Virus record (IMG/VR): IMGVR_UViG_3300030012_001854
Span: 1 to 25,275 of that record
Length of the DNA stretch: 25,275 bases
Source: a virus
Taxonomy: Duplodnaviria; Caudoviricetes
Direction: 5' to 3' (one strand)
Part shown: positions 1 through 20,178 of the stretch, piece by piece
Layout: each line of letters begins with the position of its first letter
How positions within the stretch are numbered: position 1 is the first letter of the stretch
The notes under the pieces: generated by a model
What the model saw: only the letters and a program-made list of their open reading frames with translations
Database searches by the model: none
Told to the model about the DNA's origin: nothing
Position numbers and translations under genes: made by a program

Positions 1-825
1 CCTAAAATAAAAAAACCAAAGGCAAGTTTTTTTGTAGCTATATCTGATCTACAACTAGGTAAAAGAGATGGTGGTGGTACAGAAGCAATAGTAAAAAGAT
101 ACCTGGAAAAGATAGACACAGTACGAGATAGATATAATTTTTTACGGAAGGCAGGTGTCAAGTTAGATCAACTTACAGTCATAGGACTCGGTGATATTGT
201 CGAAGGTTGCGTTGGCTTCTACCCCCAAGCTATGGGACCTAACGGTGTCGAGTTAGATTATCGTAATCAAATGAAGTTAGCTAGAAGATTGATTGCTAAG
301 TCATTAATAGAATGGTCAAAAGATTTTGATGTAGTTGTAGTCGGTGCAGTTCCCGGAAATCATGGTACTAAAAGAATTGCAAAAAACTTAGCACCTACAG
401 GTGAGATGGACAACTATGACATAGAAGTGTTTGAACAGATAGCAGAAATATTTGCAGACAAACCACAGTTTGATCATATAAAATTTGTAATACCTGATGA
501 ACCACATTTATCATTAAACGTTTGCGGGACCAACATGAGTTTTACGCACGGACATTTGGCGGGCTTCTCTGGATCAGTAGAAAATAAACTTATGACTTGG
601 TGGAAGAACCAGACATTTGGCGGCTTCCATGCAGGTGCTAGTAGTATACTTGTTACAGGTCACTACCATCATCATCGTGAATTACATGACGGGCGTACAT
701 GGATACAAGTTCCTGCACTAGATGAGAGTACTTGGTTTGAACAGCAAGCAGGTAAGAAGACTAAGCAGGGCATAATGACAATGGTAGTAGACAAGAATGG
801 ACATAATAATAAAGAGATTGTATGA
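1..825 (+). CDS. Calcineurin-like metallophosphoesterase (Mre11/SbcD-fold), 5' end outside window
   Basis: Frame is open from base 1 (PKIKKPKASFFVAISDLQLG...), upstream of the track start at 232. Motifs in order: SDLQLG, GLGDIVEG, VPGNHG, FTHGH, TGHYHH. Confidence 0.88.
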   Translation, partial: PKIKKPKASFFVAISDLQLGKRDGGGTEAIVKRYLEKIDTVRDRYNFLRKAGVKLDQLTVIGLGDIVEGCVGFYPQAMGPNGVELDYRNQMKLARRLIAKSLIEWSKDFDVVVVGAVPGNHGTKRIAKNLAPTGEMDNYDIEVFEQIAEIFADKPQFDHIKFVIPDEPHLSLNVCGTNMSFTHGHLAGFSGSVENKLMTWWKNQTFGGFHAGASSILVTGHYHHHRELHDGRTWIQVPALDESTWFEQQAGKKTKQGIMTMVVDKNGHNNKEIV

Positions 826-905
826 ACGACAACGCGTGGATAATACTTGATGATGGATCGCGCGTACACGTGTCTTGGATAGATACAGAGTTTGAGGAGG
901 AGTAA
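822..905 (+). CDS. 27-aa micro-ORF MNDNAWIILDDGSRVHVSWIDTEFEEE
   Basis: ATGA overlap with the upstream stop; hand translated; TAATG-coupled to the next ORF. Confidence 0.5.
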   Translation: MNDNAWIILDDGSRVHVSWIDTEFEEE

Positions 906-964
906 TGGGCGGACCTGATTTAGATATAGAGTTTGCTTTAGCAAAATCACAAGAAGAAGAATAA
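905..964 (+). CDS. 19-aa micro-ORF MGGPDLDIEFALAKSQEEE
   Basis: TAATG overlap; SD GAGGAGG at 894-900. Confidence 0.4.
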   Translation: MGGPDLDIEFALAKSQEEE

Positions 965-969
965 CGCTA

Positions 970-1040
970 CAAATGAATAAGTCGGTCTCACAGGACCGAC
1001 TCATTCGGAAGGAGATAACAACGTTAAGATGTTATCTGAT
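970..1040 (-). ncRNA. Candidate anti-RBS small RNA (leftward)
   Basis: Minus strand reads hairpin AGAUAACA/UGUUAUCU, then CCUUCC, then a 13-bp hairpin (975-1006) that pairs fully (one G.U) only on the minus strand. Promoter immediately upstream. Confidence 0.55.
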
Positions 1041-1046
1041 CTTCCT

Positions 1047-1075
1047 AATATAACACATGCTATAATTAAGTGCAA
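1047..1075 (-). promoter_or_regulatory. Sigma70/SigA-type promoter, leftward
   Basis: TTGCAC (1075-1070), 17 nt, TATATT (1052-1047), with extended TG. Confidence 0.6.
1058..1066 (+). promoter_or_regulatory. Extended -10 promoter, rightward
   Basis: TGcTATAAT exact extended -10 consensus; no clear -35. Confidence 0.6.
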
Positions 1076-1080
1076 TCAAT

Positions 1081-1149
1081 TCACTGATAGAGGTTTCCTC
1101 CTTTACTCTATCGTGACACCAGGTTATTTTATTTTAATCTGGTGTGTCA
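1081..1149 (+). ncRNA. Two-hairpin RNA or 5' leader with anti-SD loop
   Basis: Stem TCAC-t-GATAGAG/CTCTATC-GTGA with loop GTTTCCTCCTTTA (1093-1105). Second stem ACACCAGGTTA/TAATCTGGTGT (G.U on + strand). Confidence 0.55.
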
Positions 1150-1184
1150 GTAAAATCTAGTATATAATTATATTGGAGGTAGTA

Positions 1185-1418
1185 ATGACTGCAATTAATA
1201 CTACATTTGATAGTAATGGTATGTTTGCCAAGTTATCTGATTCTGTTGGTGATACAGGACGTGGTTTTATCGTGTTCTGGAAAAGCAATCCAACATACAT
1301 AGATAGTATAAGTGGTTTACGTAATTGGTTACGTAGGCATGGGCTATACATAGAGACGTTTGAGTTTACAGGTGTCTTACATTATGTATTTGTAGCGTCA
1401 GAACGTGGCGGCGACTAA
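1185..1418 (+). CDS. Hypothetical protein
   Basis: ORF track 1173-1418; ATG 1185 preferred because SD GGAGG lies at 1175-1179. Confidence 0.75.
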   Translation: MTAINTTFDSNGMFAKLSDSVGDTGRGFIVFWKSNPTYIDSISGLRNWLRRHGLYIETFEFTGVLHYVFVASERGGD

Positions 1419-1421
1419 CAC

Positions 1422-1700
1422 ATGAACATATTTACAAATCAAAAGGAGTTAAAGAAGTGGGCTATATCTATGGCTAATGCTTGTGGCGGCATGGAAGTAG
1501 TACAAAATAATATAATTAAAAAGCAGAGTCCAAAAAAAGTAGAAAACTTAACAATAAAATTTGTGTCTGATTACAATGCTATGGTTAAGATAGCTATGGA
1601 AAAGATAGCAAAGGACACAATTATAGAGAATGGATTAGAACCAATTTCAGATGAACTAAAAGAAGAACTTAAAACAAAAGGAAAAGAAGGAGATATATAA
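1422..1700 (+). CDS. Hypothetical protein (92 aa)
   Basis: ORF packed between neighbours; TAATG overlap with the next gene. Confidence 0.75.
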   Translation: MNIFTNQKELKKWAISMANACGGMEVVQNNIIKKQSPKKVENLTIKFVSDYNAMVKIAMEKIAKDTIIENGLEPISDELKEELKTKGKEGDI

Positions 1701-2479
1701 TGGCATGGCAAGATGAGTACGATCAAGTAGAAGATAGACTTAAAAAGTTTTGGAAGGACAATCCAAACGGAAGAGTCGATACAAAAATAATACACGTAAG
1801 TGAAGATTTTAAGAATGCAATACATAGATGTGAGATATACAAAGATATTGCAGACGAGAATCCTGTAGCTACAGGCATAGCGCAAGACCAACATGGTCCA
1901 GTAGGCGCAAACAAAACATCATGGATTGAGAACGGTGAGACATCTGCAATAGGAAGAGCTTTAGCTAATTGGAAGTACGCTGCGAAGAAGCGTCCTTCAG
2001 TCACAGAAATGCAAAAAGTGGAGAACCTAAGTGGCAACATTGAGGTTACCAAGACTGTAAGTAAAACTAGCAATAGCAATACTTACAGTCCTCCACCTAG
2101 CGTTAAAAAAAAACTTGAAGGTGCAACAACTGACGAAGACTTAGAAGGTAAATCTATACAAGAGAAGTTAGATACTATAGGTGTAGATGTAGAAGAAAAA
2201 GTAGTAGTTACAAAAGGTACAGTAGAACCTAAGTGTATAAGTTGTGACAGCGAACTATGGGACAACAGAGTAGACAAAGCAACTGGCAAGATAGGACCAC
2301 GTTATCCTGATTGGAAGTGTAAAAACAGAGATTGTAAAGCAGGTAAAAATGGTACACCACGTGTATATTACATGGAGAGTTTTAACGCAGAACAACAGGC
2401 ACCAGAAGAATGGTATATGCCAGAGTTAGTAAAGGCAAAAGACGTTGAAGAAATCAAAGAAGACGAAGCGCCGTTCTAA
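1700..2479 (+). CDS. Rad52/Sak-like single-strand annealing protein with C-terminal Zn-ribbon
   Basis: YDQVEDRLKKFW...ATGIA...ENGETSAIGRALAN pattern; C-terminal CxxC-WDNR-PDWKC-x4-C; acidic tail ending APF; SD GAAGGAG. Confidence 0.65.
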   Translation: MAWQDEYDQVEDRLKKFWKDNPNGRVDTKIIHVSEDFKNAIHRCEIYKDIADENPVATGIAQDQHGPVGANKTSWIENGETSAIGRALANWKYAAKKRPSVTEMQKVENLSGNIEVTKTVSKTSNSNTYSPPPSVKKKLEGATTDEDLEGKSIQEKLDTIGVDVEEKVVVTKGTVEPKCISCDSELWDNRVDKATGKIGPRYPDWKCKNRDCKAGKNGTPRVYYMESFNAEQQAPEEWYMPELVKAKDVEEIKEDEAPF

Positions 2480-2524
2480 AAAACATATATACAAAGGTAA
2501 TCCAAATTGGGCAGGAGATGATTG

Positions 2525-2644
2525 ATGTTTACAGTAGTAGTACAAGTAACAAGCAGCGGTGAGTTTGTCGACATAGATTTTGAAGACGCGCCTATGCACA
2601 TACCGGTAAATGTAAGACAGGAGATAGTAGATGGCGAAGAATAA
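2525..2644 (+). CDS. 39-aa micro-ORF MFTVVVQVTSSGEFVDIDFEDAPMHIPVNVRQEIVDGEE
   Basis: SD AGGAG at 2513-2517; hand translated. Confidence 0.6.
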   Translation: MFTVVVQVTSSGEFVDIDFEDAPMHIPVNVRQEIVDGEE

Positions 2645-2768
2645 AAAAGATAATCCGTTTGATGGTCCAGGAGTAAAAGTAGGATCAGAAGAGTTTAAGA
2701 ATATGGTCTTAGGTGTAATGATAAATAAACATAATAATCCTGACGAAGACTTTGATCTTACAAAGTGA
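2631..2768 (+). CDS. 45-aa micro-ORF MAKNKKDNPFDGPGVKVGSEEFKNMVLGVM...
   Basis: SD AGGAG upstream; GTGA overlap with the SET gene. Confidence 0.6.
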   Translation: MAKNKKDNPFDGPGVKVGSEEFKNMVLGVMINKHNNPDEDFDLTK

Positions 2769-3070
2769 CCTATAAACCATTACCTAGTTACCTTACAATA
2801 AAACCAAGCAAGATAGATGGACTCGGATTATTTACATTAGTTGACATTGATAAAGGTGTTAACTTAGGTGTAACGCACATTCAAGTTGACTTAGACCAAT
2901 ATCCACATGTTGATGAGATTGTGCGCACACCTTTAGGTGGTTTTATAAATCACAGTGACACACCTAATCTAAAAAAAGTACAAGACCGTAAATTATTTTT
3001 TGTATACACGATCGTTGACATACCTATGGGAAGTGAATTATGCTTGAAGTACGAATGGTATAAGTTATAG
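2765..3070 (+). CDS. Stand-alone SET-domain protein (putative lysine methyltransferase)
   Basis: SKIDGLGLF (motif I), GFINHSDTPN (NHS motif), DIPMGSELCLKY (ELxxxY). Confidence 0.88.
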   Translation: MTYKPLPSYLTIKPSKIDGLGLFTLVDIDKGVNLGVTHIQVDLDQYPHVDEIVRTPLGGFINHSDTPNLKKVQDRKLFFVYTIVDIPMGSELCLKYEWYKL

Positions 3071-3082
3071 GAAGGAGATACT

Positions 3083-3364
3083 ATGAGTATGCGAGATGAC
3101 ATACTACAAATATTATCTGACAACGAATGGCATTGTGCAGGAGAACTGTATGAGCTAGGCGTATCAGCACGTAATCGTATATCAGAGATACGACAAGACT
3201 TAGGTGAAGATTACATACTAGGTGGCGAAGGTACACCATGTAAGATACCTGGACACTATCACAAAGCAAAGAACTTGTGTATGTATAAACTCAACGATCA
3301 AGAAAAAAAACAAGAATTAATAAATAGACTGGACAATGCGATACAACTAGAATTAAATGTATGA
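3083..3364 (+). CDS. Winged helix-turn-helix DNA-binding protein
   Basis: ILQILSDNEWH...EL...ARNRISEIRQDLG pattern; RBS GGAAGGAGATA. Confidence 0.6.
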   Translation: MSMRDDILQILSDNEWHCAGELYELGVSARNRISEIRQDLGEDYILGGEGTPCKIPGHYHKAKNLCMYKLNDQEKKQELINRLDNAIQLELNV

Positions 3365-3798
3365 AGGACGTTCTAAAAACTAAAGGCGGACAAGCTGCAT
3401 GGGATTTACTTAACATGTCCGATGGTATTTTAGAAGCTATTACATATTGTGAAGAGATAGAACCTGCAGATAGAATAGGTTTTTTTCCTGGTGATACAAC
3501 AGAACACAACAGTCTATATAGAAATGTTATAAAGTTAGAACCAAACATACCTACAAAAGATTGTCCGCATTACGGCGGAGTCAAAGTCGAAATTGTTACA
3601 AGTAAAGGTGTAGGTTATATAGACTTGCTATTAGATTTTAATGATTTGTTTTCTTACCAATATGTACAACGGGGTGTGCAACTTGACTACGGTAGGTTTT
3701 ATCGCGGTGAAATGCACGCATACTTAGTAGCAGTAGCACGTGTACTGAACTCACCGAAGGCATTGAAGGAGAGAAAATTAATTAAAAAGGAAGAGTGA
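3361..3798 (+). CDS. Hypothetical protein (145 aa)
   Basis: ATGA coupling; no recognised motif. Confidence 0.75.
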   Translation: MKDVLKTKGGQAAWDLLNMSDGILEAITYCEEIEPADRIGFFPGDTTEHNSLYRNVIKLEPNIPTKDCPHYGGVKVEIVTSKGVGYIDLLLDFNDLFSYQYVQRGVQLDYGRFYRGEMHAYLVAVARVLNSPKALKERKLIKKEE

Positions 3799-4175
3799 TG
3801 AGCAAACAAAAACAACAGGGTACAAAGCTAGAAACATTCGTAGCAAAAATGTTAGATGGACAACGTATCGCAGAAGGTGGCAAGAATGACAAAGGTGACG
3901 TGTTGTTTCATTGGAATGGCAATGAGTTTTTTGTAGAGTGTAAAGCTAGGCAGAGTCTCAATGTTACACGTGAGTTAGCAAAGGCAATCAAGAAGTCAAA
4001 GTCGAACTTTACAGCGTTAGTATGGAAGCGGCTAGTAAAAACTGGCGGACAAAGAAGACAACCTGACGGCGTACCTATAATTGTATGCTTACCACTAGAT
4101 ACCTTTATAGAAATAGTTGAGACTAAAGTCGGCAATAAATTCTACGATGATCCATTTTGGTCACAGCTTCCATGA
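3798..4175 (+). CDS. Holliday junction resolvase, Hjc-type PD-(D/E)xK
   Basis: SKQKQQGTKLE, DKGDV, FFVECK motifs. Confidence 0.8.
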   Translation: MSKQKQQGTKLETFVAKMLDGQRIAEGGKNDKGDVLFHWNGNEFFVECKARQSLNVTRELAKAIKKSKSNFTALVWKRLVKTGGQRRQPDGVPIIVCLPLDTFIEIVETKVGNKFYDDPFWSQLP

Positions 4176-4369
4176 CAGATATAGATAAGATTGGAAGACG
4201 TACAGCACTAACTCTACAGAGCTTGATGGCAATAGTTGAGTATGACTACAACAGACACGAATCATGTTTAGTATGCCGGGAAAAATTTATGCACCATGTA
4301 GATGGGTTACCATGCAAGACAGATGATGAACGTAAACAAATAGTAAAACGTAATAGATGGAATGCTTGA
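4172..4369 (+). CDS. Small protein, possible Zn-binding (CLVC...HH...C)
   Basis: ATGA overlap at 4172; Cys/His cluster. Confidence 0.65.
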   Translation: MTDIDKIGRRTALTLQSLMAIVEYDYNRHESCLVCREKFMHHVDGLPCKTDDERKQIVKRNRWNA

Positions 4370-4395
4370 CTTAAATTACATTATGTAGTTAAATA
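4366..4395 (+). promoter_or_regulatory. Probable promoter
   Basis: TTGACT at 4366 with AT-rich TTAAAT/TAAATA 17-18 nt downstream, in a gap before a strong RBS. Confidence 0.45.
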
Positions 4396-4422
4396 ATAAA
4401 TATCTTTTAGGAAGGAGATAAC

Positions 4423-4596
4423 ATGAATCAATTAATAGAGAGACTAACTATTGATATTGTGACAGATGATTGCGGACCAACATATTCCGCACTGGACCAC
4501 ATACATCAATGGGTAAACGACAACGGATTAGGACAAACTATTATCCGCAGCAGTACTAAAAAACTTATATTAGTAGAGCAAGATAATGCCGAGTAA
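4423..4596 (+). CDS. 57-aa protein MNQLIERLTIDIVTDDCGPTYSALDHIHQW...
   Basis: RBS GGAAGGAGATAAC-ATG; hand translated; below the track cutoff. Confidence 0.7.
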   Translation: MNQLIERLTIDIVTDDCGPTYSALDHIHQWVNDNGLGQTIIRSSTKKLILVEQDNAE

Positions 4597-4702
4597 TGAT
4601 AAGCAAACCATAAAAGAATTACGTAAAATAAATGAAGTTTTATGGGAGTACATAAGTGAAAACGACATACCAGAAATAGATATAAGATTGGAGACGATAT
4701 GA
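4586..4702 (+). CDS. 38-aa micro-ORF MPSNDKQTIKELRKINEVLWEYISENDIPEIDIRLETI
   Basis: Fills the gap; ATGA overlap with the next gene. Confidence 0.55.
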   Translation: MPSNDKQTIKELRKINEVLWEYISENDIPEIDIRLETI

Positions 4703-4914
4703 AGATTGTACTAATTAAATCATACGAAGGTAATAGTGTTGGATATACCAGATGTAAAACAATTAGCGAAGCAGAAAACCAATTAATAGATTGGGAGAAG
4801 CAAGGACTATGCACTAACAGTGATGAGATATTTTCTTTTAGCAGCATACAAAGAGCATTTATATTTTTGTTAAAAGAAATAAATAAATTAGGAGGGACGG
4901 ATAACGCAGTATGA
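4699..4914 (+). CDS. Hypothetical protein (71 aa)
   Basis: SD GGAG; ATGA overlaps at both ends. Confidence 0.7.
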   Translation: MKIVLIKSYEGNSVGYTRCKTISEAENQLIDWEKQGLCTNSDEIFSFSSIQRAFIFLLKEINKLGGTDNAV

Positions 4915-5777
4915 GACAAGCAACGTTAAAAATAAAAATGGATACATGCGATTTACGTGTATTAAAAAACTTATGTGAGTTTGCACAAGGTATCCAAAGT
5001 GAACAATTACATAAATTAGTGTTTATATGGAAACCAGGTAACAGCTTAGAAGTAAAAGCAACTGATTCTTTTATAGCACATAGAGTTAGATTCGGTAAGA
5101 TATACAAGCCGGAAATGTATTATCAATGGAAGCGACCAACTGGCGTTCAACAAGAACTTAGACTAGAGCAGCATGATGATAAGTACATAGCAGTTGTAAG
5201 AGCTGACCAGTTAAAATTAGTATTGACACAAATACTAAAGCATAAAAAATCTACGATAGATAGCACATGCTACCTAACATATCATACAAATGAATCATTA
5301 GATTATTATTTGGAAGATGGAGTAATAAGACCAGTTGATTACGAAACATTACATGAGACTGATGGTTATAAACTATTGCACATGATGAATTTTAATTTTG
5401 ACTTTAGTGACAACAGTGAAAATTATTACAATCAATTTAATGTAAAGCCACACATACAAGTACAAGACTTAAATGTTAATACGTTAATTGATAAGATATG
5501 GACAGACGAAGACTTATCTATATACGAAGAAGTACCAGAAGTATTATCAATGACAGCGCATGTACTTATGAGAGCATGCAAAGTTTATGACGTTAATAAA
5601 ACTGGTAAGTATGATAGCCGTATGAACTGGAAGTACATGAAGAATAAATGGTATATATGGCAAAACTACTTATCCGGCGCTACCAAACACATACTACGTA
5701 AAGATAATGTACAAAGCATAGAGACTTTTGTAATGACTGGACGTAGTCTTGATGAAACTAAAATCGGCGTGATATAA
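4911..5777 (+). CDS. Hypothetical protein, possible divergent beta sliding-clamp-like fold
   Basis: ORF is secure; function rests only on LCEFA...LHKLVFIW...SLEVKATDSF resembling the DnaN ATD motif context. Confidence 0.4.
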   Translation: MRQATLKIKMDTCDLRVLKNLCEFAQGIQSEQLHKLVFIWKPGNSLEVKATDSFIAHRVRFGKIYKPEMYYQWKRPTGVQQELRLEQHDDKYIAVVRADQLKLVLTQILKHKKSTIDSTCYLTYHTNESLDYYLEDGVIRPVDYETLHETDGYKLLHMMNFNFDFSDNSENYYNQFNVKPHIQVQDLNVNTLIDKIWTDEDLSIYEEVPEVLSMTAHVLMRACKVYDVNKTGKYDSRMNWKYMKNKWYIWQNYLSGATKHILRKDNVQSIETFVMTGRSLDETKIGVI

Positions 5778-5987
5778 ATGCTAGATCCATTAACAGCAGT
5801 AGGAAGTTTGTTTAGTTTTATACTTGGATTCTTTTTTGGTTACGGTACATCACAATATAACAAGAGATTGTACATCGAAGAAAAGATAAGAGCTTTACAA
5901 ACAGAGAAGCAACATTTAAAATCACATATAGATATAGTTGAAGATATAAACTTTAACTTACGGAAGGAGAAGAACGATGAGAGATAG
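5778..5987 (+). CDS. Small membrane-anchored coiled-coil protein
   Basis: Hydrophobic N-terminus AVGSLFSFILGFFFGYG followed by a heptad-like segment. Confidence 0.7.
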   Translation: MLDPLTAVGSLFSFILGFFFGYGTSQYNKRLYIEEKIRALQTEKQHLKSHIDIVEDINFNLRKEKNDER

Positions 5988-6147
5988 ACTACTACAGTTT
6001 ATACACTCTATGACAGAACGCTTTATGCGATTCTTAATGGATAATGATTATCCTATAAAGTATGACAGTGAGTTAGTATGCCAGGAAGGTACAATATTTG
6101 ACCAGTGTTATTGCCCGATACATGATACGGAGAATAACTATGCCTAA
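5977..6147 (+). CDS. 56-aa protein with C-x8-CxCxxH cluster
   Basis: RBS GGAAGGAG at 5962; hand translated MRDRLLQFIH...VCQEGTIFDQCYCPIHD. Confidence 0.65.
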   Translation: MRDRLLQFIHSMTERFMRFLMDNDYPIKYDSELVCQEGTIFDQCYCPIHDTENNYA

Positions 6148-6424
6148 GAATGAAGAAAAATTATTAACTTACAAAGGTTATGTAGAATTTCATATTGATG
6201 TTAATAATCTTGACAATGAATTTATGGAAGCACATAGCATAGAAGAAGATGATTTAGGTGTATATATATACAAAGAAAAAAGATACACTGCGGATACGAT
6301 TGTAGATGTAATCAAAGAATGTATTGTTAATGAATGTACATCATGGTTAAATGATTTAAAAATAGGTGTAGAGCTAGGTTTATCTACAGTTATAGAAGAT
6401 GGAGTTGAATCATGGACGAAGTAA
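6140..6424 (+). CDS. Acidic hypothetical protein
   Basis: Track ORF 6098-6424; ATG 6140 has SD GGAG at 6129. Confidence 0.7.
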   Translation: MPKNEEKLLTYKGYVEFHIDVNNLDNEFMEAHSIEEDDLGVYIYKEKRYTADTIVDVIKECIVNECTSWLNDLKIGVELGLSTVIEDGVESWTK

Positions 6425-6717
6425 TTACATACGAGCAATGGAAAAAGAAGTACAAGCCACGTGTAATAAAAGCGGCAGGACCTGGAAGACAGTACGTCAA
6501 TAAAGATACGAGAGAGCCGACATATACATGGTTTGATACTAACAAAAAAGACTATGACATAATGATGGCACATGCTGAACCTAATACAGTATGGACAGAG
6601 CGTTATGATGAAGACGATAAGCCGTATCTAACTAGCGGTGTAGGAATCGTAGATAGATTTTGTTATTACGTAACAGAAGTTAGTCACGATGGAAAGGATA
6701 TAACAGTATATGGATAA
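6412..6717 (+). CDS. Hypothetical phage protein (101 aa)
   Basis: SD GGAG at 6401; packed with neighbours. Confidence 0.75.
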   Translation: MDEVITYEQWKKKYKPRVIKAAGPGRQYVNKDTREPTYTWFDTNKKDYDIMMAHAEPNTVWTERYDEDDKPYLTSGVGIVDRFCYYVTEVSHDGKDITVYG

Positions 6718-6877
6718 TTGGTTAGTGTTTGAGACTGTAACATATACACATAAAGTGACAGCAGAGACAGAAGAAGAAGCGATAAAGATAGTAAAAGGAG
6801 GAGGACAGGGACAAGATAAAACTGTAAACAGCGTAGATTTTAGTGCAACTAAATATGTATCTTTACAGAGATACTAA
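6710..6877 (+). CDS. 55-aa protein with VTAETEEEAIK motif
   Basis: Hand translated; VxAxxxEEA pattern is common in small phage proteins; SD AAGGA. Confidence 0.65.
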   Translation: MDNWLVFETVTYTHKVTAETEEEAIKIVKGGGQGQDKTVNSVDFSATKYVSLQRY

Positions 6878-6937
6878 GTCAAAGTCGTATGCTTATCAAA
6901 AGTCGGCGCTTTTATTGGTTAGATCTAAAAATTAATT

Positions 6938-7018
6938 ATGTATAAATTAAAAAAGTACCAGGAATATAAAAAGAATCTAGATGACATAAAGAAGAAAAGA
7001 GAAGCACGGAAGCAATGA
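6938..7018 (+). CDS. 26-aa basic peptide MYKLKKYQEYKKNLDDIKKKREARKQ
   Basis: ATGA-coupled to the next ORF; no SD seen. Confidence 0.35.
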   Translation: MYKLKKYQEYKKNLDDIKKKREARKQ

Positions 7019-7113
7019 AAAATATATTTATAACATTATCATTAATCAGCGGCTTTATTTTGTTAGTAGCTTTTATATGGTATGGCATGAAATATATCCT
7101 TGACCTTGATTAA
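7015..7113 (+). CDS. 32-aa single-pass membrane peptide MKNIFITLSLISGFILLVAFIWYGMKYILDLD
   Basis: About 20 uninterrupted hydrophobic residues; ATGA overlap. Confidence 0.55.
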   Translation: MKNIFITLSLISGFILLVAFIWYGMKYILDLD

Positions 7114-7128
7114 GTTTTATTCTAAACT
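7100..7128 (+). promoter_or_regulatory. Sigma70/SigA-type promoter
   Basis: TTGACC, 17 nt, TAAACT, followed by RBS AAGGAAGGAAATAAA-ATG. Confidence 0.6.
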
Positions 7129-7150
7129 TAATACAAAGGAAGGAAATAAA

Positions 7151-7342
7151 ATGACGTTTTGGGAATATCCGGAATATCTGGAAAAATCAAGCACTAAAAA
7201 TATTAGTGTATATAAAAACAAAGTTAACGGCGCTTTGATATTGCATGACGCAAACGATTTTGGAACAAAAATGGTTTATATGGGTTATGGAATACAAGAA
7301 GCCAAAAGATTATTTAAATTACATTTGAAGGGGATACAATGA
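7151..7342 (+). CDS. Hypothetical protein (63 aa)
   Basis: ATG 7151 follows a strong RBS; the track start at 7100 coincides with the -35 box. Confidence 0.75.
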   Translation: MTFWEYPEYLEKSSTKNISVYKNKVNGALILHDANDFGTKMVYMGYGIQEAKRLFKLHLKGIQ

Positions 7343-8604: not shown

Positions 8605-8634
8605 ATGGTACACTATAGCATATAGATATGTCAA
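8605..8634. promoter_or_regulatory. Overlapping divergent promoters at the terL start
   Basis: Plus: TGgTACACT 8606-8614. Minus: TTGACA (8634-8629), 18 nt, TACCAT, and also TGcTATAGT (8620-8612). Confidence 0.5.
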
Positions 8635-10544
8635 ATAAACAAAAAAACACACTCTGTACAGCAGGAGACTGCACCGTCCCTTTACCAGAAGGTCGTAGAA
8701 AATACTGTAGTAATACGTGTGCGGAACGCACAAAGAAGCGTGCATATAGAGCTAATAAATCTACAGAAGATTTCCAAGAAATAAAAGAAGTAGATGAACA
8801 AGTACAGAAACGACGTGGCGACTACTACGCCATTATGAAGAAAAAAAATTTTTTCGACGATATTCTAAGGGGGGACAAGACGAAAAAACAGGTATCGGAT
8901 ATACTATCCTGCAGTCCTGCAACAGTGAGTCGAGCTATGGCAGCGTATCTAGAAGATAAAGCAAAAGAAGCCGAATACGAAAAACGATCCGCAGCGACAG
9001 TGGGGGAGATACAGGAAGCCGATGTCGACGATTTCGTAAAATTTAGAGATGATTATTTCTTAACAGAACAAGGTAAAAATTATGAGACACCAGACTTCCA
9101 AAGAAGGTGGATTAGTGCTATCTTAGATAGTATACAACACGGTAAAAGGTTGATGATACTGTCACCACCTAGACATGGTAAGACAGACTTGTTAACACAC
9201 TTTTGTGTCTATATGATTGCAAAGAATCCGAACATACGTATCATGTGGTGCGGTGGTAACGAAGATATAGCAAAGAACAGTGTTGGCGCAGTGTTAGATC
9301 ACCTGGAGAACAATGAAGGACTCATACAAGATTACGGAGATTGGGACGGATTTAGACCTGCTAATAGAAGCGGAAAAAGTTGGTCGTCCAGTCAATTTAC
9401 TGTTGCAACTAGAACAGTCTCTGGTATCAAGTCACCAACTCTTGTTGCTATTGGAAAAGGAGGTAAAATTCTCTCCAGAGACGCGGACCTTATTATTGCA
9501 GACGACATCGAAGATCATGGCACAACTGTGCAACCTAGTGCTAGAGAAAACACAAGAAACTGGTGGACCACAACGCTACAGTCAAGAAAAGAAGAACATA
9601 CAGGTATGGTCGTTATCGGATCACGGCAACACCCCGACGATCTATACCATCACCTCTTAGATAACAGAGCATGGGAATCTATCATAGATAGAGCGCATGA
9701 CCTAGAAGTACCACTAGAAGACGAAACTATAGACCAAACAAAACACATGTTATGGGCAGAAAAAAGAAGTCATAAATGGTTATTAGAACAATTATCTGCA
9801 GCAGAGACAACAGGTGGTAGAAACATATTTGAGATGGTATATCTTAACAAAGCTATACCTGATGGCATGAGTTTGTTTACAGCAGAAGCAGTAGATAGTT
9901 GTTTAGATCCGTCAAGAAAACTAGGTGACATACCGCCACATACTGCATTGATAGCAGGACTCGATCCGGCAAGTACAGGATACCAGGCAGCAGTATTGTG
10001 GGCATATAACCTACAAACACAACAGATATGGTTAGTAGATATAAAAAACGATCAAGGTGGTGGTATTAAAAAAGCACATGACTTGATGAAGGAATGGTAT
10101 GACAAGTATTGGTTATCACATTGGATTATAGAAGAAAACGGTTTCCAAAAAGCTATAGGTCAAGATAGAGATATACGTAACTGGGCAGCAGCTAACGGTG
10201 TAAGAATAGAAGGACACCAGACATACAAAAACAAATGGGATCCTACCTTTGGTGTTACAAGTATGGTAGGTATGTATGAAAATCAAAAAGTAAATCTAGC
10301 ATGGGGAGACGCTGCAACAAAACGTAAAGTAAATATATTTAGACAACAACTTTTATATTTTTCACAAGCAGGTGCTTCTAATTCACGTAATGTAAAAACA
10401 AAAACTGACTTAGTTATGGCTAGTTGGTTCCCTATGAAACGTATACGTACAAGTGTAAAAATGATGTTAGCAGAAGCAGATAGCGACTATACTCCTAGTT
10501 ATAGTTATTATAAAACAAGTGATTACAATGAGGTTTTTTGGTAA
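8628..10544 (+). CDS. terL: Terminase large subunit with N-terminal Zn-finger and HTH extension
   Basis: Walker A LSPPRHGKT, Walker B LIIADDIED, VIGSRQHPDDL, nuclease AGLDPAS, IIEENGFQ, TDLVMASWF. Confidence 0.95.
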   Translation: MSNKQKNTLCTAGDCTVPLPEGRRKYCSNTCAERTKKRAYRANKSTEDFQEIKEVDEQVQKRRGDYYAIMKKKNFFDDILRGDKTKKQVSDILSCSPATVSRAMAAYLEDKAKEAEYEKRSAATVGEIQEADVDDFVKFRDDYFLTEQGKNYETPDFQRRWISAILDSIQHGKRLMILSPPRHGKTDLLTHFCVYMIAKNPNIRIMWCGGNEDIAKNSVGAVLDHLENNEGLIQDYGDWDGFRPANRSGKSWSSSQFTVATRTVSGIKSPTLVAIGKGGKILSRDADLIIADDIEDHGTTVQPSARENTRNWWTTTLQSRKEEHTGMVVIGSRQHPDDLYHHLLDNRAWESIIDRAHDLEVPLEDETIDQTKHMLWAEKRSHKWLLEQLSAAETTGGRNIFEMVYLNKAIPDGMSLFTAEAVDSCLDPSRKLGDIPPHTALIAGLDPASTGYQAAVLWAYNLQTQQIWLVDIKNDQGGGIKKAHDLMKEWYDKYWLSHWIIEENGFQKAIGQDRDIRNWAAANGVRIEGHQTYKNKWDPTFGVTSMVGMYENQKVNLAWGDAATKRKVNIFRQQLLYFSQAGASNSRNVKTKTDLVMASWFPMKRIRTSVKMMLAEADSDYTPSYSYYKTSDYNEVFW

Positions 10545-12289
10545 TGGTATATACCGCTGACGAATTATTAATTAAGACAGACGACCTTCGTGGCATGCAC
10601 GAACAGAGTGGACATTACGAATATAGAGATAGAGTCCGTTCTATTATGAACGGTGGTGCTAACGGTATAGGCGCATTACTAGGTGACGGTGCAAAAAACT
10701 ATGACACTGACTTACCTATACCTAATCTTATAAACTCCGGTCTAGAACACCTTGCACAAAAACTAGGACGTATGCCAGATATAAAAGTAGACGCATACGC
10801 AGATAGTGACAGAGCAAAAAACAAATCAGAAAAACTAGAACGTATTGTTACTGCATTAGATGGTCATTCTAAGATGGATCAACAAATGCCACAGGCAGCT
10901 AGATGGTTACCTGGTTATGGTTTTTGTGTATGGATTATTAGACAAAAAATGGGACCTGATGGTGTGTTATATCCTCACGCAGAACTCCGCGATCCTTATG
11001 ATTGTTTTCCAGGATATTACGGACCAGACCAAGATCCAAAAGAATTAGCACTTATACGTCTAGTACCTAACGCTGTTATAAAACAAATGTATCCTGCAGC
11101 AAAGATTGCAGTAGATGAGTCAAGTCAATTCCCATCTGGTTACAGTAAGTTTAAATACCATGACGGTTACCAAAGAAGTTGGGGAAACCATTTAGCAGAT
11201 GGTACAGAACTTGTAGAGTTTTATGACGAAGAAGGTACATACGTATTCTTACCAGAAACAAAACAAATATTAGATTTTACACCTAATCCATTAAAGTCAG
11301 GACCAAGATTTGTTATATCTAAAAGATTTAGTTTTGACAGATTGTCAGGTCAGTATGACCATGTACTAGGTTTGATGGCAGCTATGGCAAAAATAAATGT
11401 TTTGTCAATAATTGCTATGGAAGACAGTGTATTTACAGAGACGAATATTATTGGTGAATTAGAGAGTGGGAACTACAAGCGCGGTAGATTTGCAGTCAAT
11501 TACCTTACACCTGGTTCACAGATAGCTAAACCACCAAACAATATTCCATATCAGCTATTTACACAAATAGACAGAATAGAACGACAGTTAAGAGTTGGTT
11601 CTAGTTATCCAGTTAGTGATGACGCTATATCACCTAACAGTTTTGTAACTGGTAGAGGACTACAAGAACTATTATCTTCAGTCGATCTAAACGTAAAAGA
11701 ATATCAGCTATCACTAAAAAAAGCTATGGAAGAGCTAGATTATAAACGTTTAGAAATGGACGAAGCACTTAACGGTACAACTAAAAAACCATTAGCAGGA
11801 TTTATGAAGGGGACTGCTTTTGCAGAACAATATACACCTAGCACAGACATACAAGGTATGTACAAGACAAGACGTGTTTATGGTGTCATGGCAGGTTTTG
11901 ATGAACCTACAAAGATAGTATCTGGTTTACAGTTATTACAAGCAGGTATTATTGACAAAGAGACATTGCAAGAAAACATGGACGGACTAGACAATGTACA
12001 AAAGATAAACGACAGAATCTTAAAAGACGAAGCAGAACGTACATTGTTTGAGACACTAAAAGTACAAGCAAGTCAAGGTGATCCAAAAGCTACGATGGCA
12101 TTAGTACAGATATATAAAAATCCTAACTCTATGCAATCTATACTAGATAAATTTTATACAGCAGAAGATCCAGAAGTACCTGAAGCAGAAGCTGCACTTA
12201 TAGGTGATCAACCACAACAAGCAGTTGCACCACCAGGCGCTGCACCAGATATACGATCATTATTATTAGGAGGTGCGCAAAATGCCTAA
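10544..12289 (+). CDS. Portal (head-tail connector) protein
   Basis: About 580 aa, TAATG-coupled to terL; RDPYDCFP and GQYDHVL motifs; low-complexity P/Q/A tail typical of podovirus-like portals. Confidence 0.85.
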   Translation: MVYTADELLIKTDDLRGMHEQSGHYEYRDRVRSIMNGGANGIGALLGDGAKNYDTDLPIPNLINSGLEHLAQKLGRMPDIKVDAYADSDRAKNKSEKLERIVTALDGHSKMDQQMPQAARWLPGYGFCVWIIRQKMGPDGVLYPHAELRDPYDCFPGYYGPDQDPKELALIRLVPNAVIKQMYPAAKIAVDESSQFPSGYSKFKYHDGYQRSWGNHLADGTELVEFYDEEGTYVFLPETKQILDFTPNPLKSGPRFVISKRFSFDRLSGQYDHVLGLMAAMAKINVLSIIAMEDSVFTETNIIGELESGNYKRGRFAVNYLTPGSQIAKPPNNIPYQLFTQIDRIERQLRVGSSYPVSDDAISPNSFVTGRGLQELLSSVDLNVKEYQLSLKKAMEELDYKRLEMDEALNGTTKKPLAGFMKGTAFAEQYTPSTDIQGMYKTRRVYGVMAGFDEPTKIVSGLQLLQAGIIDKETLQENMDGLDNVQKINDRILKDEAERTLFETLKVQASQGDPKATMALVQIYKNPNSMQSILDKFYTAEDPEVPEAEAALIGDQPQQAVAPPGAAPDIRSLLLGGAQNA

Positions 12290-12524
12290 TCCATACGATA
12301 GAGATATTATGAATATGCAGTTTGCAGATATATGCGAAAACTCACTTATTGATGTATGGCAACGTGCGTCAGAACAAATACTAGATTACGAAAACGAAAT
12401 ATACAAAGATGAACCTACAGTACATGCTATGCCTACAGGTATGGTTGTGCAATACATACCAAACGGTTTACTTATTTTTTTTGGACAACCAATAGAGGAG
12501 GACTTTGATGAGTACGGATTCTAG
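12282..12524 (+). CDS. Small acidic hypothetical protein
   Basis: SD GGAGGT before ATG 12282. Confidence 0.7.
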   Translation: MPNPYDRDIMNMQFADICENSLIDVWQRASEQILDYENEIYKDEPTVHAMPTGMVVQYIPNGLLIFFGQPIEEDFDEYGF

Positions 12525-12969
12525 TAGAGCTAGAGGTAGAAGAGGTGGTGTCAAGAGACCTGCTGCTGTAAGCGGACCAGGTAGATTATCACGTAGAACA
12601 GATGGTGCTGCACCATCAATAGAAGATGTTAGAGGTATGGTTACAGAGTCAGCAGGTGAAGAAACAGAACTTGTAAATCAAGTTAGGCAAGGTAATGTAA
12701 CACCACCACCTGCAACTGTTGCTGCACCAGAAGAACCACAACAAGAATTACAAACATTACCTGCAGGTGCCGCAGAAATATTTGCAGCAGGTGATGACCT
12801 ACCTATAAATACACAATCTACAATGGCACAAGAATCATCATCGTTATTAGAACCTGATGATGTAATGCTTATAAGAGCAATGGCAAAGATAAATCCATCA
12901 CAAGAGTTAATTAGTTTATTACAATTTGCAGAACAAAAGATAAACAGAACACCACAACAATTCGGATAA
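12508..12969 (+). CDS. Portal-adjacent virion-module protein (PAAVSGPGRLSRRTDG)
   Basis: SD GAGGAGG; basic Gly/Arg N-terminus with a motif I recognise downstream of the portal in actinobacterial podovirus-like phages. Confidence 0.75.
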   Translation: MSTDSSRARGRRGGVKRPAAVSGPGRLSRRTDGAAPSIEDVRGMVTESAGEETELVNQVRQGNVTPPPATVAAPEEPQQELQTLPAGAAEIFAAGDDLPINTQSTMAQESSSLLEPDDVMLIRAMAKINPSQELISLLQFAEQKINRTPQQFG

Positions 12970-12970
12970 A

Positions 12971-15900
12971 ATGGGCGTATTTCATTTTGACAATCCTAAG
13001 TCAGAACAAGACTTATACAAAGAGCTACGACAAAGAAAAACACAATGGACAAGAGCGCAGTCTGCTGTAAATAAAGCTGACGCAGAACGTGCTACAGCAA
13101 TAGCACAGTTATATCCTAACTTTTCACCAGATGTTATTACATCATTGACAATGTTGCAGGTAAAACCAGAAGCAGAAGTATTAAATACATTGTCACAAAG
13201 AATCGTAGAACATAACAAAAAAAACACTGTAGAGAAGATATTTGATCCACTAAAAGGTGCTGTAAGGTTTGGATTGCTTGCATTAGAAGATTTATACAGA
13301 ACAACAGTAGATAGACCTATAAACTCTATTATTGCTGCAACAATAGGTGATAATGCAGAAAACTTGTCATTTGCAGACGCATATAAACAATCAGGTAAAT
13401 CTACAGTAAAACAAGTATTTAAGAACTTAGCACAAGGTAAAGACGTAAATTTAGGTGATGGACTGTTACCACAGTCAGAAGTCTTTGATCCAGACAATCC
13501 TAACAGTAAAATGTTTGACGAATACAAATATCTTATACAATCTGGTTTTGACCAACAACGTGCGCAAAGCATAATACAAAATCAATTAGGTTCTGCTATC
13601 ACAGAAATAGATAGAAACATGCAAGAAGACAGTGGTTTGTTTAATATTTCTACAACACTAGGTACAGGAGAAACTGTACAAACACCTATCTCATTAGGTA
13701 GAACTGTTGCATTAGGTGTGTCAGAACCTGGTACAAACGCATTTAACGCTATATCAGGTGTTTTAGACGCAGGTAAAGCATTGTTTTTAGATCCTGCTAA
13801 TTACCTTACATTAGGTGCTGCAGCACTAGCAAAGAGCAGAAAAACACTTAGAGCTAGTGATGACCTTATTGCACAGCTAAAAGGCATAGATGTAAAAGAT
13901 GTAAAGAAAATGACAAAAGCAGAATTAGCAGAAATAGGTATGGTAAACAGAGGTTGGGGACTATCTTTTGTTACACCTAAGTCTGTAACAGATTATCTTA
14001 ACAAAGATCCAGGTGGTATGAAACTTGTTAAGTATTTATCAAAGATAGAGTCAGAATCTAAATTTATGGATATTACAGGTATAAAAGATCCTGGCGTTGT
14101 AAAAGAGTTTATGAAGGTATCACAAGACTTTACAAAGACTGCAGACGAAAAAATATTAGATATGGCTAATTTATTAGATAAAGCTATAGGTTTTAGAGAT
14201 ATGCCGTTTGGCAATGTAAGACCTACTGTAGGTGCTATAGGTAGGTTTTTAGGTGGTACAGCAGAAGCTATTGCAGGTACTAACGTACCACAAGGTACTG
14301 GTGCATTGTTTGGTGCTAAAAAAGTATTTAAGTTAGCACTTATGGATAGTAATTCTAGGTCTGCACGTATTATGGCAACCTATACAAAAGACTTACCTTT
14401 ACGTTATTTAGATAGTGAAAACATAGAACAATCATTTGACCAGATAAAAAAATGGTTAGACCAAACAGATCTAAATAGAAATAGCAAAGATAAGTTACTA
14501 AGAGAAACTATGAATCTAAAAAACAGAGATCAAGCAGGTTTATTTAGAGTAGCTACAAGTATGTTAGAAGAAACAGGTAGAGACTTAGTAGAGAATGGAC
14601 AAGTATCTGCACAAGACGCTAGAACATTTACACGTATTTTTGAAGAAACAATCGACGATATGCGTAAATATTTTATAGATGGTTACACAGGTGACAATGT
14701 TAGACAACCAGGTATGAAGATGAATCCTATAACAGTAGAAGGCAAGATGAAGGCAATGCCTGACGCACACCTTACTACAGAGTTTATTAACAGAACTATA
14801 CCTATGCCAGACGCAGGACAGCTTGCAAAAGCTATGAACAGTATGTCAATACTTAGATCTAAAATGGGCGGTACAAAAGCATTTGATAACTTTTTAGCTA
14901 AATATCCTAAAAAAATGCAAAAAGGTATAACTGGTAGAACAGTTGACTGGTATTACACAGAGTTCTGGAAACCTGCTGTTTTGTTACGTGGTGCATGGTT
15001 ATTACGTGTTGTAGGTGAAGAACAGCTACGTATGTTTACTAGAGGTTATGACAACATATTCTCTAGACCATTATCAATATTATCTTTAGGTTTAGCAAAA
15101 GCTACAGGTGCAGGTAAAGAAGCTGCACAAGCAAAACGATGGACACAAAAAAATGTAGAGTTTAAAGATTTATTAGGTAATCCATTAGATGAGAGTTTAG
15201 AATGGAAACAAGGTTCATCACGTATGCGTGGTGCAAACAATAACGATGAGTTATTTGGTGGTGCTGCACGTAATCAAAGAAAACAACAAGGTAGACGTAA
15301 AAAAGCAGGACCACACGATTATGACGTATTAGACAGAGAAGACGCTATACGTGGTCGATTTACAGGTGATAGAGCTACTGGTAATAAATTTGTAAGAAGT
15401 TGGACAAATGAAGTTGCAAAACTATATCTAGATGATTTGTTTGATTTGTTATTTAAAAATAAATCTAATCCTAAAGCAAGACAAAATGCACTAGAAGACT
15501 GGGTAAAAGGTCAATCACCTAAAGCAAAAGCTGTTATAGAAGAATATGCAAAAGGTGGTACAAGATATGAAGATGTTATGTCTACAGCAGGTGGTAGATA
15601 TGCTTATGCTAAATCTATAGAAGCAAGATTACATCAAGCTGCAGGTGGTGCATTTGACGAAGATATAACAGTTCTAGAAGATGTTATGAATAAATTAGAG
15701 TTTGAAGATATAGATTTTGGTAAAAATCCATTTCCATTGCGTATAGATAAACCACGTAATGAAGACCTATATGCAATGATTACAACAGGTAAATTAAAAC
15801 ATATTGCAACAGAGAGAAATCAAGGTGTATGGACAGACGCTGCATTGCTTACACCTGATCAAATTAAGAACGCAGCAGGTTCTGTAGAACATGCAGGTAA

Positions 15901-18481: not shown

Positions 18482-20178
18482 CAGAAGAATATAAACAATC
18501 TATAGTTGACAGCATTATTGCACAAAGACAATTAGCAGACAATGATCCTTTTGTTACAGAACTTAATGGGTATGTAAAAGAAAACATATCTGATTCTCTA
18601 TTTATTGCAAAAGTAAATACTGCCTTAAAAATATACGATACAGCACAATCAAAAGATTCTGTATCTGGTTTAGGTATGACAAGCGTTACAAAAAATGTTT
18701 TCACAAATGCACTAAATGACGCAATAGGTGCAGTAGAACTAGAAGGTGATCCTGCAGGATATGCACCAGGACAATATGAAACATGGTTAGTCAATACACC
18801 TTTGGACGTAAGAATAGATGTATTTAAAGGTATGGATATATCAGCAGGTGTTATACAAGCAGATGAGTCACAAGAATATTTTGATTATCTTATTGATAAG
18901 TTAGACGATTGGTATGACTCTACAGGACAGATAGGTGCATTAGTTAAACCTGGTGGTGGTAAAGGTGTTGTGTTGTTCTCTACAGATGAGTATGACAAAT
19001 ACAAAAAAAATTATGACAATCCAGAAGATACTATGCAAATATTTAGAGATGTAGAACCTGGTAGAACAAAAGTACCTAAGCAAGGATTTAGAGCAGAACC
19101 TACTGTATTGTATGAACCTATTATGTCAGGTGATCCAGGCAAGTATGAATTTAGCGGAGAATACAACAATAGAGTAAAAGATATAAGTGATGGCACATAC
19201 AAAACTGTTAAAGAAGCAGGTGGTGCTATAACAATAATAAATAACGCTACAGGCGAAACAGAACAAAGAGTTGTTACAGATAGTGAGTTTGTACAACTAT
19301 CAGAAGGACAACTTGATGGTGGTTATACAGTTATACAAAGTCAAGAAGCTGCAATAGTAAATCAAGCTAAAGAAACATTATTAGGACAAAGTGAGTTTTC
19401 TGGTAATTATGGTTTGTTTGGCGGTATTACTCCTGGTTATACAGTATATAAAAATCCAGACTTAGCTGCTGTATTTGAAGAAGGCAGAGAACTTACACCT
19501 AGTGACATGGCAGCAGAAACAATAACACTTACAGAAGAAGATGTAAAAAATAGATATGGTAATCAAGATCACATACAAATAGGTTTTAACATGTTGCCAC
19601 AAGAGAGACTAGCTGTACAAACAGATTTATTACAAGCAGGATATTTAAGTTATGATGATTGGTTTTTTGAGCAAGGTAGTTGGGGTGCTGCAAGTCAAGC
19701 AGCTATGTTGTCAGCAATGACAAATGCTAACTATGAGTTATCAGATATAGGTACACATCTAGCAGCAGAAAAAGATAGGTTATATAAACGACCACCATTA
19801 TTACCTAAAGTATTTATAGAACCTAGTCCATCAGCTGTAAAAACAGAGATAGATGGTGCTTTACGTGCTATAGGTATAGATAGAGAATTATCAGAAGCAG
19901 AGATGGTTGCACTAGCAGATTTTTATGTAGCTAGTAGTAAGAACTATGAAACAGCAGTTGCAGATTTTAACAAGAATTATGATTTAGCGCAACGTATGTT
20001 TCCTGGTGCAGATAAAAACCTTACCGTTCCAGAGACACCAACTGCTAGTCTAGAAGAATACGCTGATGGCTTATTTGGTGCAGAAGTAGCAGCAAAAGAA
20101 AAAGCTACAAAGGAACGTAATGATCTTAGCTACTTGTTTGGTACTCTCGATTCTATGTCCAGGTTGGCTAGTGGTTGA
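18478..20178 (+). CDS. Putative virion protein with peptidoglycan-binding-like segment
   Basis: LAVQTDLLQAGYL...GSWGAASQAAM resembles the PG_binding_1 pattern; ATGA coupling. Confidence 0.55.
   Translation: MTEEYKQSIVDSIIAQRQLADNDPFVTELNGYVKENISDSLFIAKVNTALKIYDTAQSKDSVSGLGMTSVTKNVFTNALNDAIGAVELEGDPAGYAPGQYETWLVNTPLDVRIDVFKGMDISAGVIQADESQEYFDYLIDKLDDWYDSTGQIGALVKPGGGKGVVLFSTDEYDKYKKNYDNPEDTMQIFRDVEPGRTKVPKQGFRAEPTVLYEPIMSGDPGKYEFSGEYNNRVKDISDGTYKTVKEAGGAITIINNATGETEQRVVTDSEFVQLSEGQLDGGYTVIQSQEAAIVNQAKETLLGQSEFSGNYGLFGGITPGYTVYKNPDLAAVFEEGRELTPSDMAAETITLTEEDVKNRYGNQDHIQIGFNMLPQERLAVQTDLLQAGYLSYDDWFFEQGSWGAASQAAMLSAMTNANYELSDIGTHLAAEKDRLYKRPPLLPKVFIEPSPSAVKTEIDGALRAIGIDRELSEAEMVALADFYVASSKNYETAVADFNKNYDLAQRMFPGADKNLTVPETPTASLEEYADGLFGAEVAAKEKATKERNDLSYLFGTLDSMSRLASG

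Follow-up and report, generated by a model that had tools for sequence, protein, structure and literature searches.

Two predicted divergent small RNAs with anti-Shine-Dalgarno motifs in a conserved gap of an uncultured marine phage group

A gap 3′ of an exonuclease-like gene in an uncultured phage raises the question whether it encodes a regulatory RNA and, if so, which ribosome-binding sites (RBSs) such an RNA would address. The gap lies near the left end of IMG/VR virus record IMGVR_UViG_3300030012_001854, which was analysed over its whole length of 25,275 bases (estimated to be 60% complete) and is called the window in this work. A leftward small RNA crossing positions 970 to 1075 had been proposed (the original prediction), which would silence a set of early phage genes through a 14-nt match to their RBSs. 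Judged from the sequence, the gap is best read as encoding two divergent small RNAs of approximately 70–90 nt, each with an anti-Shine-Dalgarno (anti-SD) motif. The existence of the leftward transcript is probable. That positions 968–1040 of the minus strand encode a small non-coding RNA of approximately 70 nt which acts as an anti-SD riboregulator is put forward tentatively, with slightly less than even confidence. The second, rightward candidate (positions 1058–1150 of the plus strand) appears better supported than the leftward one.

Relatives of the gap were collected from viral contigs in a scan guided by the exonuclease protein, which gave 87 confirmed stretches, 80 of which were kept (85–99% identity). 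A pattern scan added the more divergent members L102, L110, L132, L177, L191 and L194. The gap is kept 3′ of the exonuclease gene across the relatives from the exonuclease scan, and 70 of the 80 loci contain an exact copy of the 15-mer GGTTTCCTCCTTTAC (window positions 1092–1106); the other ten stop within the exonuclease gene or within about 130 bases past it, before the 15-mer is reached. The 109 related loci represent 50 unique versions of a module of approximately 180 bp, and every element was found in all 50. From left to right, the module consists of a predicted terminator (T1), a Shine-Dalgarno (SD)-like box, a hairpin (H2), two overlapping promoters, a second hairpin (H3), a further terminator-like hairpin (T2), and a third promoter with the strong SD of the first small gene (Table 1). 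Two promoters, two seeds and two terminators are thus combined in this short stretch.

The proposed leftward small RNA gene is backed by its promoter pattern, hairpin, CUCCUU core and terminator, all of which are kept in 50 of 50 relatives, and by compensatory changes in 12 of the 14 pairs of the left-unit alignment (A1; 25 sequences). In this alignment 94.6% of the cells were paired, as compared to 31–47% in slid controls, and the observed score was reached in none of 500 shuffles. Because these sequences are kin, the shuffles exaggerate significance, and more reliance can be placed on the slid controls and on how many distinct stem versions exist. For the right unit (A2; 21 sequences, 18 pairs) the corresponding values were 90.6% versus 34–52%, with compensatory changes in 13 pairs. 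Reading the inverted repeat as a protein operator was rejected because its arms vary in sequence, orientation and spacing among clades (loop 5–16 nt).

The minus-strand fold of the window agrees with the one described in the original prediction: the 8-bp hairpin H2 is followed by CUCCUUCC, six of whose eight bases are unpaired, and then by the 13-bp hairpin T1, which is fully paired on the minus strand only, as U.G at 979/1002 becomes A x C on the plus strand. The left unit is thus laid out as a hairpin, an unpaired C/U seed and a terminator, with predicted RNA lengths of 72–89 nt; in the window, the RNA would start at approximately 1040 and end at approximately 968. The sequence UUAUUCAUUU comes after T1 on the minus strand, and the T residues after the core number six of nine on this strand versus three of nine on the other. 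In the relatives T1 is a G+C-rich hairpin between an A-run and a T-run, that is, a bidirectional terminator with at least seven different stem sequences, compensatory changes in eight of ten pairs and 95% of cells paired. Among the 50 relatives, 28 have at least six T residues in the nine positions after the T1 core on the plus strand, and 35 reach this number on the minus strand. The seed varies little: CUCCUUCC is present in 45 of the 50 sequences, CUCCUUAA in three and CCUCCAUU in two, with alignment columns C28, T29, C30, C31 and T33 invariant. At least six of its eight bases are unpaired in 32 of 50 minimum free energy folds. Read on the plus strand, the box is (G)GGAAGGAG in most clades, TTAAGGAG in L110/L132 and ATGGAGGTGAG in L034/L046. 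Hairpin H2 varies among clades in sequence, loop length and even the order of its arms. The predicted leftward RNA hence has two properties of a trans-acting small RNA, namely an intrinsic terminator on its own strand and a conserved, accessible seed.

The leftward promoter is present on the minus strand as it had been described, with TTGCAC (1075–1070) separated by a 17-nt spacer from TATATT (1052–1047). The pattern TTGnnn-17-TAnnnT is kept among the 50 unique sequences, including the spacer length of 17 nt. Positions 1, 2 and 6 of the minus-strand −10 element, which are the most important ones for a sigma-70 −10 element, are T, A and T in all 50; positions 3 to 5 are free (three or four letters each), giving 11 different hexamers. 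No plus-strand reason for such a TAnnnT pattern is seen. The −35 element reads TTGACA in 39 sequences, TTGCAT in five and TTGCAC in three, and is shifted by one base in the remaining three; in the window's lineage the weaker −35 goes together with TGT ahead of the −10. By sequence alone, then, the predicted leftward RNA has a promoter of its own. The rightward promoter pattern TGnTATAAT is kept in 48 of 50 sequences, the exceptions being TGCTACAAT and TGTTATACT. Since the promoters overlap and their predicted starts (approximately 1040 leftward and 1074 rightward) are only about 34 bp apart, one polymerase would be expected to exclude the other.

In the right unit, the 13-nt loop of H3, GUUUCCUCCUUUA, never varies among the relatives, and seven of eight pairs of the stem show compensatory changes. 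The loop resembles the anti-SD sequence, with CCUCCUUU being the part which we take to be in common with the 3′ tail of 16S rRNA. The plus strand is clearly indicated as the strand of this predicted RNA: it is the more stable one in 17 of 18 sequences, and wobble cells are of the G.U type in 54 cases versus six of the A.C type (14 versus none in H3, 40 versus six in T2), counts that are somewhat biased in that pair structures were predicted on the tested strand. In the window's lineage (window, L002 and L003/L004) the T-run after T2 is lost and the next −10 element has moved close, so that the rightward RNA may run into the gene starting at 1185, unlike in most relatives.

Table 1. Features of the gap module and the second copy of the 14-mer in the window.
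Feature	Position	Strand	Details
T1, predicted terminator of leftward RNA	975–1006	−	13-bp hairpin; core GTCGGTC 981–987 / GACCGAC 994–1000; loop 988–993
SD-like box; seed (U)CUCCUUCC on minus strand	1007–1015	−	Plus strand reads GGAAGGAGA; core CUCC.U invariant
H2, 8-bp hairpin	1013–1037	−	Arms AGATAACA / TGTTATCT; loop 9 nt; 4/4 consensus pairs compensatory
CTTCC, can pair with GGAAG 1007–1011 as outer helix around H2	1041–1045	+	5′ of predicted leftward start
Leftward promoter	1047–1075	−	−35 TTGCAC, 17-nt spacer, TGT and −10 TATATT
Rightward extended −10 promoter, TGCTATAAT	1058–1066	+	Inside leftward spacer; predicted start ~1073–1074
H3, covarying stem	1082–1115	+	Invariant loop GTTTCCTCCTTTA 1093–1105, closed by G1092–C1106
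T2, 11-bp hairpin directly 3′ of H3	1116–1145	+	Followed by T5–7 in most relatives, where it would act as terminator
First gene of rightward small-gene cluster	−10 TATAAT 1163–1168; SD GGAGG 1175–1179; ATG 1185	+	SD and start kept in relatives
RBS of 57-residue gene, second 14-mer copy	4410–4423	+	Exact match

The 14-mer GGAAGGAGATAACA, on which the choice of targets was originally based, is found exactly at both 1007–1020 and 4410–4423, the latter being the RBS of a gene for a 57-residue protein. The shorter matches are also real (11 nt at 3070, 10 nt at 1686 and 10 nt at 5961), and the copy at 1007 indeed has no well-spaced start codon, the sole start downstream being the ATG at 1029, 14 nt past GGAG. 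The promoter that had been placed ahead of the 57-residue gene was not called in a promoter scan of positions 4250–4450. The window contains 35 identical 14-mer pairs on the same strand; dinucleotide shuffles contained 5.4 on average. Given that nearly all shuffles (98.5%) held at least one such pair, the 14-nt identity is not beyond chance. When up to three mismatches were allowed, the 14-mer pattern had nine matches versus 3.9 expected, a number reached by two of 100 shuffles; such an excess of near-matches is what a common SD core would give. The ATAACA portion of the 14-mer forms an arm of H2. The match to the 57-residue gene is, on this reading of the sequence, a by-product, in which the box repeats an RBS context that is common among these phages and ATAACA doubles as a hairpin arm. 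An exact repeat, however striking, may be commonplace even where the surrounding element is real.

The claim that a set of early phage genes is silenced via the 14-nt match found no support, as the 57-residue gene is limited to the window and its twin, no target is conserved, and RBSs of foreign genomes match equally well. Among all loci compared, this gene was found only in the window and in its 99% identical twin L002, and L021/G007 has the identical box GGAAGGAGATAACA without the gene. G001 and G002, both complete (CheckV 100%), contain no GGAAGGAG on the gene strand other than the box. Own and foreign seeds were compared in ten genomes. No match of at least 10 nt to the own box was detected in G005, G006 and G008, and the box of the window matches an RBS of G001 over 14 nt (GAAGGAGATAACAA before ATG) and RBSs of G003 and G006 over 12 nt; the own boxes of the latter three genomes read GGAGTTGTC or GGAGACAAC. 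As RBSs of foreign genomes match the window's box as well as its own RBSs do, GGAGATAAC(A)ATG is an RBS context which phages of this group commonly use. Co-variation of seed and RBS, which had been named as a check, was looked for in second box copies of each locus, in own versus foreign seeds and in the box versus the adjacent SD, and no tracking was seen. The box does not follow the SD flank of the adjacent first gene, given that L038, L058 and L059 have one box in common and differing flanks. An exception is the L034/L046 clade, where box and adjacent SD both read GGAGGTG, which may reflect only the RBS style of that clade. In the window, GGAAGGAG occurs four times, and three of these copies are real RBSs (3083, 4423 and 5977) of small genes in the first 6 kb, a distribution that is compatible with an early-gene bias of an anti-SD RNA without showing it. 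It is the whole gap with its elements that is conserved, and not a relation between the 14-mer of the RNA and a target.

A trans-acting repressor dedicated to early genes with the RBS GGAAGGAGAT(AACA) (4423, 3083, 5977 and 1700), with the duplex at 4410 as its prime target, is accordingly a very unlikely explanation. It would account for the three small-gene RBSs just mentioned and for the best duplex energies, which were obtained at 4423 and 5977, and it could draw on a 12-nt match of the L016 box to one RBS and a 13-nt match in G007. Against it stand the restriction of the 57-residue gene to the window and L002, the absence of a second GGAAGGAG from G001 and G002, the three genomes without an own match, the equally good foreign seeds, a 14-mer repeat that is expected by chance, and the pairing of ATAACA inside H2.

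Under the preferred reading, the host polymerase would transcribe both units, occupying one of the two promoters at a time. The exposed CUCCUUCC of the leftward RNA would pair with SD sequences and mask the RBSs, and both RNAs would act as anti-SD riboregulators which block translation initiation. They would target strong RBSs, either in small early genes of the phage itself or in the host, or in both. This last step is the least certain because no specific target is conserved.

Several observations weigh against this reading. A conserved or co-varying target complementarity, a further property of a trans-acting small RNA, was not found in the comparisons described above, in which matches within a genome were no better than matches to foreign genomes; further, the seed is a generic anti-SD sequence, for which complementarity to RBSs proves little. 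With only eight of 12 consensus positions, the leftward promoter of the window is weak by sequence and did not come up in the promoter scan. The strand evidence for the left unit is split. The wobble cells of T1 (28 G.U versus no A.C, and seven versus none in the 6-bp core, with the bias noted for the right unit) fit the minus strand only. In the L038 and L034/L046 clades, a plus-strand T1 would contain a C x A mismatch, and in the L038 and L110/L132 clades a minus-strand H2 contains U.G. The L005 type, which is the largest clade, has an H2 that pairs better on the plus strand, however (G.U there, A x C on the minus strand), and the energy of the whole left unit favours neither strand, each of them having the lower value in nine of 18 sequences. 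In addition, CTTCC at 1041–1045 can form an outer helix around H2, versions of which are GGAAG:CTTCC in the window, GGGAA:TTCCC in L003, TGTGGA:TCCACA in L005 and GTTAAG:TTTAAC in L110; the last of these, found at the equivalent place in L110/L191, amounts to a double compensatory change. Because one arm sits between the minus-strand −10 element and the predicted leftward start, this helix is possible only in a plus-strand RNA or in DNA. It keeps a plus-strand role for the box alive. Finally, the evidence from three RNA libraries, examined over positions 1–3000, consists of assembled contigs which give neither strand nor ends and in which small RNAs are hidden. In a viral 'RNA' library, which may hold DNA, one contig of 1,854 bases covers positions 175–2028 at approximately 97% identity. 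Two marine metatranscriptomes have contigs only at 1213–1459 and 1476–1755, the latter identical to the window; positions 900–1200 are thus uncovered in them, which is uninformative because contigs hide small RNAs.

If the plus strand were the functional one at 1007–1045, the box would be an SD-like site in an RNA reading through T1, sequestered by CUUCC pairing around H2, and would serve as an RBS decoy, a start-stop mini-open reading frame (ORF) or a translational operator, the minus-strand promoter-like pattern being secondary. The outer helix with its compensatory change in L110/L191 and the better plus-strand pairing of H2 in the L005 clade speak for this possibility, as do the letter-identity of the box to genuine RBS contexts of the group and the well-spaced mini-ORFs of 1–20 codons that follow the box in five clades (L034/L046, L039, L033, L008 and L194). 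We nevertheless regard it as rather improbable. No conserved plus-strand promoter is located 5′ of the box, where T1 stands ahead; the start spacing is 11–14 nt in other clades, and neither length nor frame of the ORF is conserved; in the L038 and L110 clades, T1 and H2 have wobble pairs that are compatible with the minus strand only; and the TAnnnT pattern is left without a plus-strand explanation. Across clades the first start codon lies 5–14 nt past the box, and the ORF that follows has 1, 2, 4, 5, 11, 13, 14, 19–20, 32, 35–36 or 43 codons. ORF 1029–1160 was rejected as a gene on account of this range of lengths, of the invariant 15-mer, which is read in frame 0 in the window, L003 and L033 and in frame 1 in L021 and L132, and of its 43-residue product, for which no match to a PHROG family was found. 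The leftward unit thus lacks the conserved protein-coding gene on the opposite strand that a cis-antisense RNA would cover. A type I toxin-antitoxin-like or sar/ant-like pair, in which this hydrophobic ORF would be real and its sequestered RBS covered by the antisense RNA, could point to an SD and an ATG in a hairpin opposite the antisense unit and to the hydrophobic C-terminal half of the product; with its ORF refuted as a conserved feature, such a pair is scarcely credible.

The complete overlap of the promoters, with the plus-strand −10 element inside the minus-strand spacer and both conserved, would also suit a promoter-occlusion switch, in which the leftward promoter competes with the rightward one and the sequence of the product is irrelevant. 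The short terminated transcript, antisense to 975–1040, would then serve solely to shield the rightward genes, via duplex formation and cleavage, from read-through of T1, and the bidirectional nature of T1 in the relatives agrees with this. Such a switch, which we consider unlikely, leaves unexplained why CUCC.U is invariant beside hairpins that change in sequence and why the box is RBS-like in every clade.

Compared with known systems, the two anti-SD candidates find partial counterparts. Yfr1 of cyanobacteria, RsaE/RoxS and RNAIII of Firmicutes and 6C of Actinobacteria use a C/U-rich motif that pairs with SD regions; in Yfr1 the motif lies unpaired between two hairpins, and in RsaE, RNAIII and 6C it sits in hairpin loops. 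Both units of the window show this architecture; those RNAs are cellular, however, and the letters of their motifs differ, whereas the window's units are phage-borne and would give two RNAs from overlapping divergent promoters. The sar RNA of P22 and the OOP RNA of lambda are leftward antisense RNAs of approximately 70 nt with a promoter within a rightward unit and an intrinsic terminator, sar covering an RBS. The predicted left unit is alike in direction, size and termination. In contrast to it, sar and OOP are cis-acting, each on a real gene of the opposite strand; the left unit has no conserved opposite ORF, and its conserved part is a short seed. In phages P1 and P7, the c4 antisense RNA matures by processing of a longer transcript, unlike the left unit with its own predicted promoter and terminator. 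In a review (PMC12197685), this phage small RNA is described as blocking translation by pairing around an RBS, with the pairing bases exposed in unpaired parts of the folded RNA. The left unit is similar in its working principle, that is, covering of an RBS by unpaired bases, but c4 has specific, co-evolving targets in the ant operon which decide heteroimmunity, whereas the seed of the left unit is generic and no specific or co-varying target was found for it. No phage small RNA mimicking the anti-SD sequence was found in full-text literature searches, as judged from listings and abstracts.

Among RNA families, the best Rfam hit was RF00242 (ctRNA_pT181) on the minus strand at 963–1048, with 25.1 bits as compared to a gathering score of 56 (E = 0.43), that is, below threshold. 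This is a weak full-length match over the span of the predicted RNA, and the two are alike in being short antisense RNAs that contain hairpins and a terminator; the context in the window is not a plasmid replication region. Apart from this hit, Rfam 15 gave only chance-level snoRNA and pseudoknot hits on 963–1150 (E up to 10), and no match in the relatives L007 and L038 or in six unrelated loci bearing the H3 loop (E up to 1).

The loop also occurs more widely. Of the 74 hits of the 15-mer in viral contigs outside the phage group, eight had a directly flanking stem of at least 7 bp versus none of 74 in a shifted control. The eight represent six elements (L114/L141/L198, L125 with its variant L133, L168, L173, L188 and L189) on contigs with 28–62% G+C. 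Some of these hairpins are followed by a T-run, and some are located 30–100 nt before a gene start. Bacterial and archaeal genomes showed no such enrichment: hits were at chance level, and stems of at least 6 bp were found at three of 120 hits versus five of 120 in the control. Variants of the loop-closing pair (C..G, A..T and T..A) gave only a few hairpins; L386/L389/L414 carry the loop with a C–G closing pair. In L168, a tRNA gene (positions 88–163; Rfam 38.4 bits) is located directly upstream of the loop-bearing hairpin. There may thus be a wider class of phage hairpins which carry an anti-SD loop on unrelated stems in unrelated viral contigs, and the identity of the loop to the letter across unrelated phages indicates a target with the universality of SD/anti-SD pairing itself. 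One could go further and suppose that GUUUCCUCCUUUA copies the anti-SD tail of 16S rRNA in unrelated phages and is paired here with a second anti-SD RNA, such that these mimics of the ribosome's tail mask strong SDs throughout the cell, shut off translation of host and early phage genes and shift ribosomes to the largely SD-less late genes; we offer this as speculation that is improbable as a whole. As a separate observation, G003 (13896) and G004 (24768; L323, L327/L328) contain a 72-residue gene whose RBS, UAAAGGAGGAAA, is a perfect 12-nt complement of the H3 loop; this RBS is absent from the window, G001 and G002.

If transcribed, the two units would represent phage small RNAs that are undescribed and have no Rfam entry, conserved as a pair across a common uncultured marine phage group. 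To our knowledge, control by small RNAs is almost unstudied in lytic marine phages. Being compact, the module lends itself to direct tests, be it in vitro or in a surrogate host.

The phage itself has no cultured relative among the records searched. The first 4–6 kb of the window had no DNA match in 50,697 deposited phage records (megablast and blastn), and tblastn with its terminase gave no more than 26–28% identity, to Streptomyces phages and two unannotated records. No relative of the terminase was found in genome contigs, which were searched for a host. All genes of the window point rightward. To the left of the gap lies the exonuclease-like gene (1–825; phrog_284, E = 1.1e-49), together with two tiny overlapping ORFs between it and T1 (region 822–963; ATG at 822, and ATG 905–963), which are present in the window's lineage only. 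At the site of these ORFs, L003/L004 (approximately 4830–5410) carry an extra insert of about 450 bases with a terminator-like hairpin of its own. The small-gene cluster to the right of the gap starts at 1185, includes a RusA-like resolvase and is followed by the terminase and portal genes. Strong SDs of the window are concentrated in the small genes at 1185–7200, and at 8628–25275 the terminase, the portal, a protein of 1836 residues and most of the large late genes lack a clear SD.

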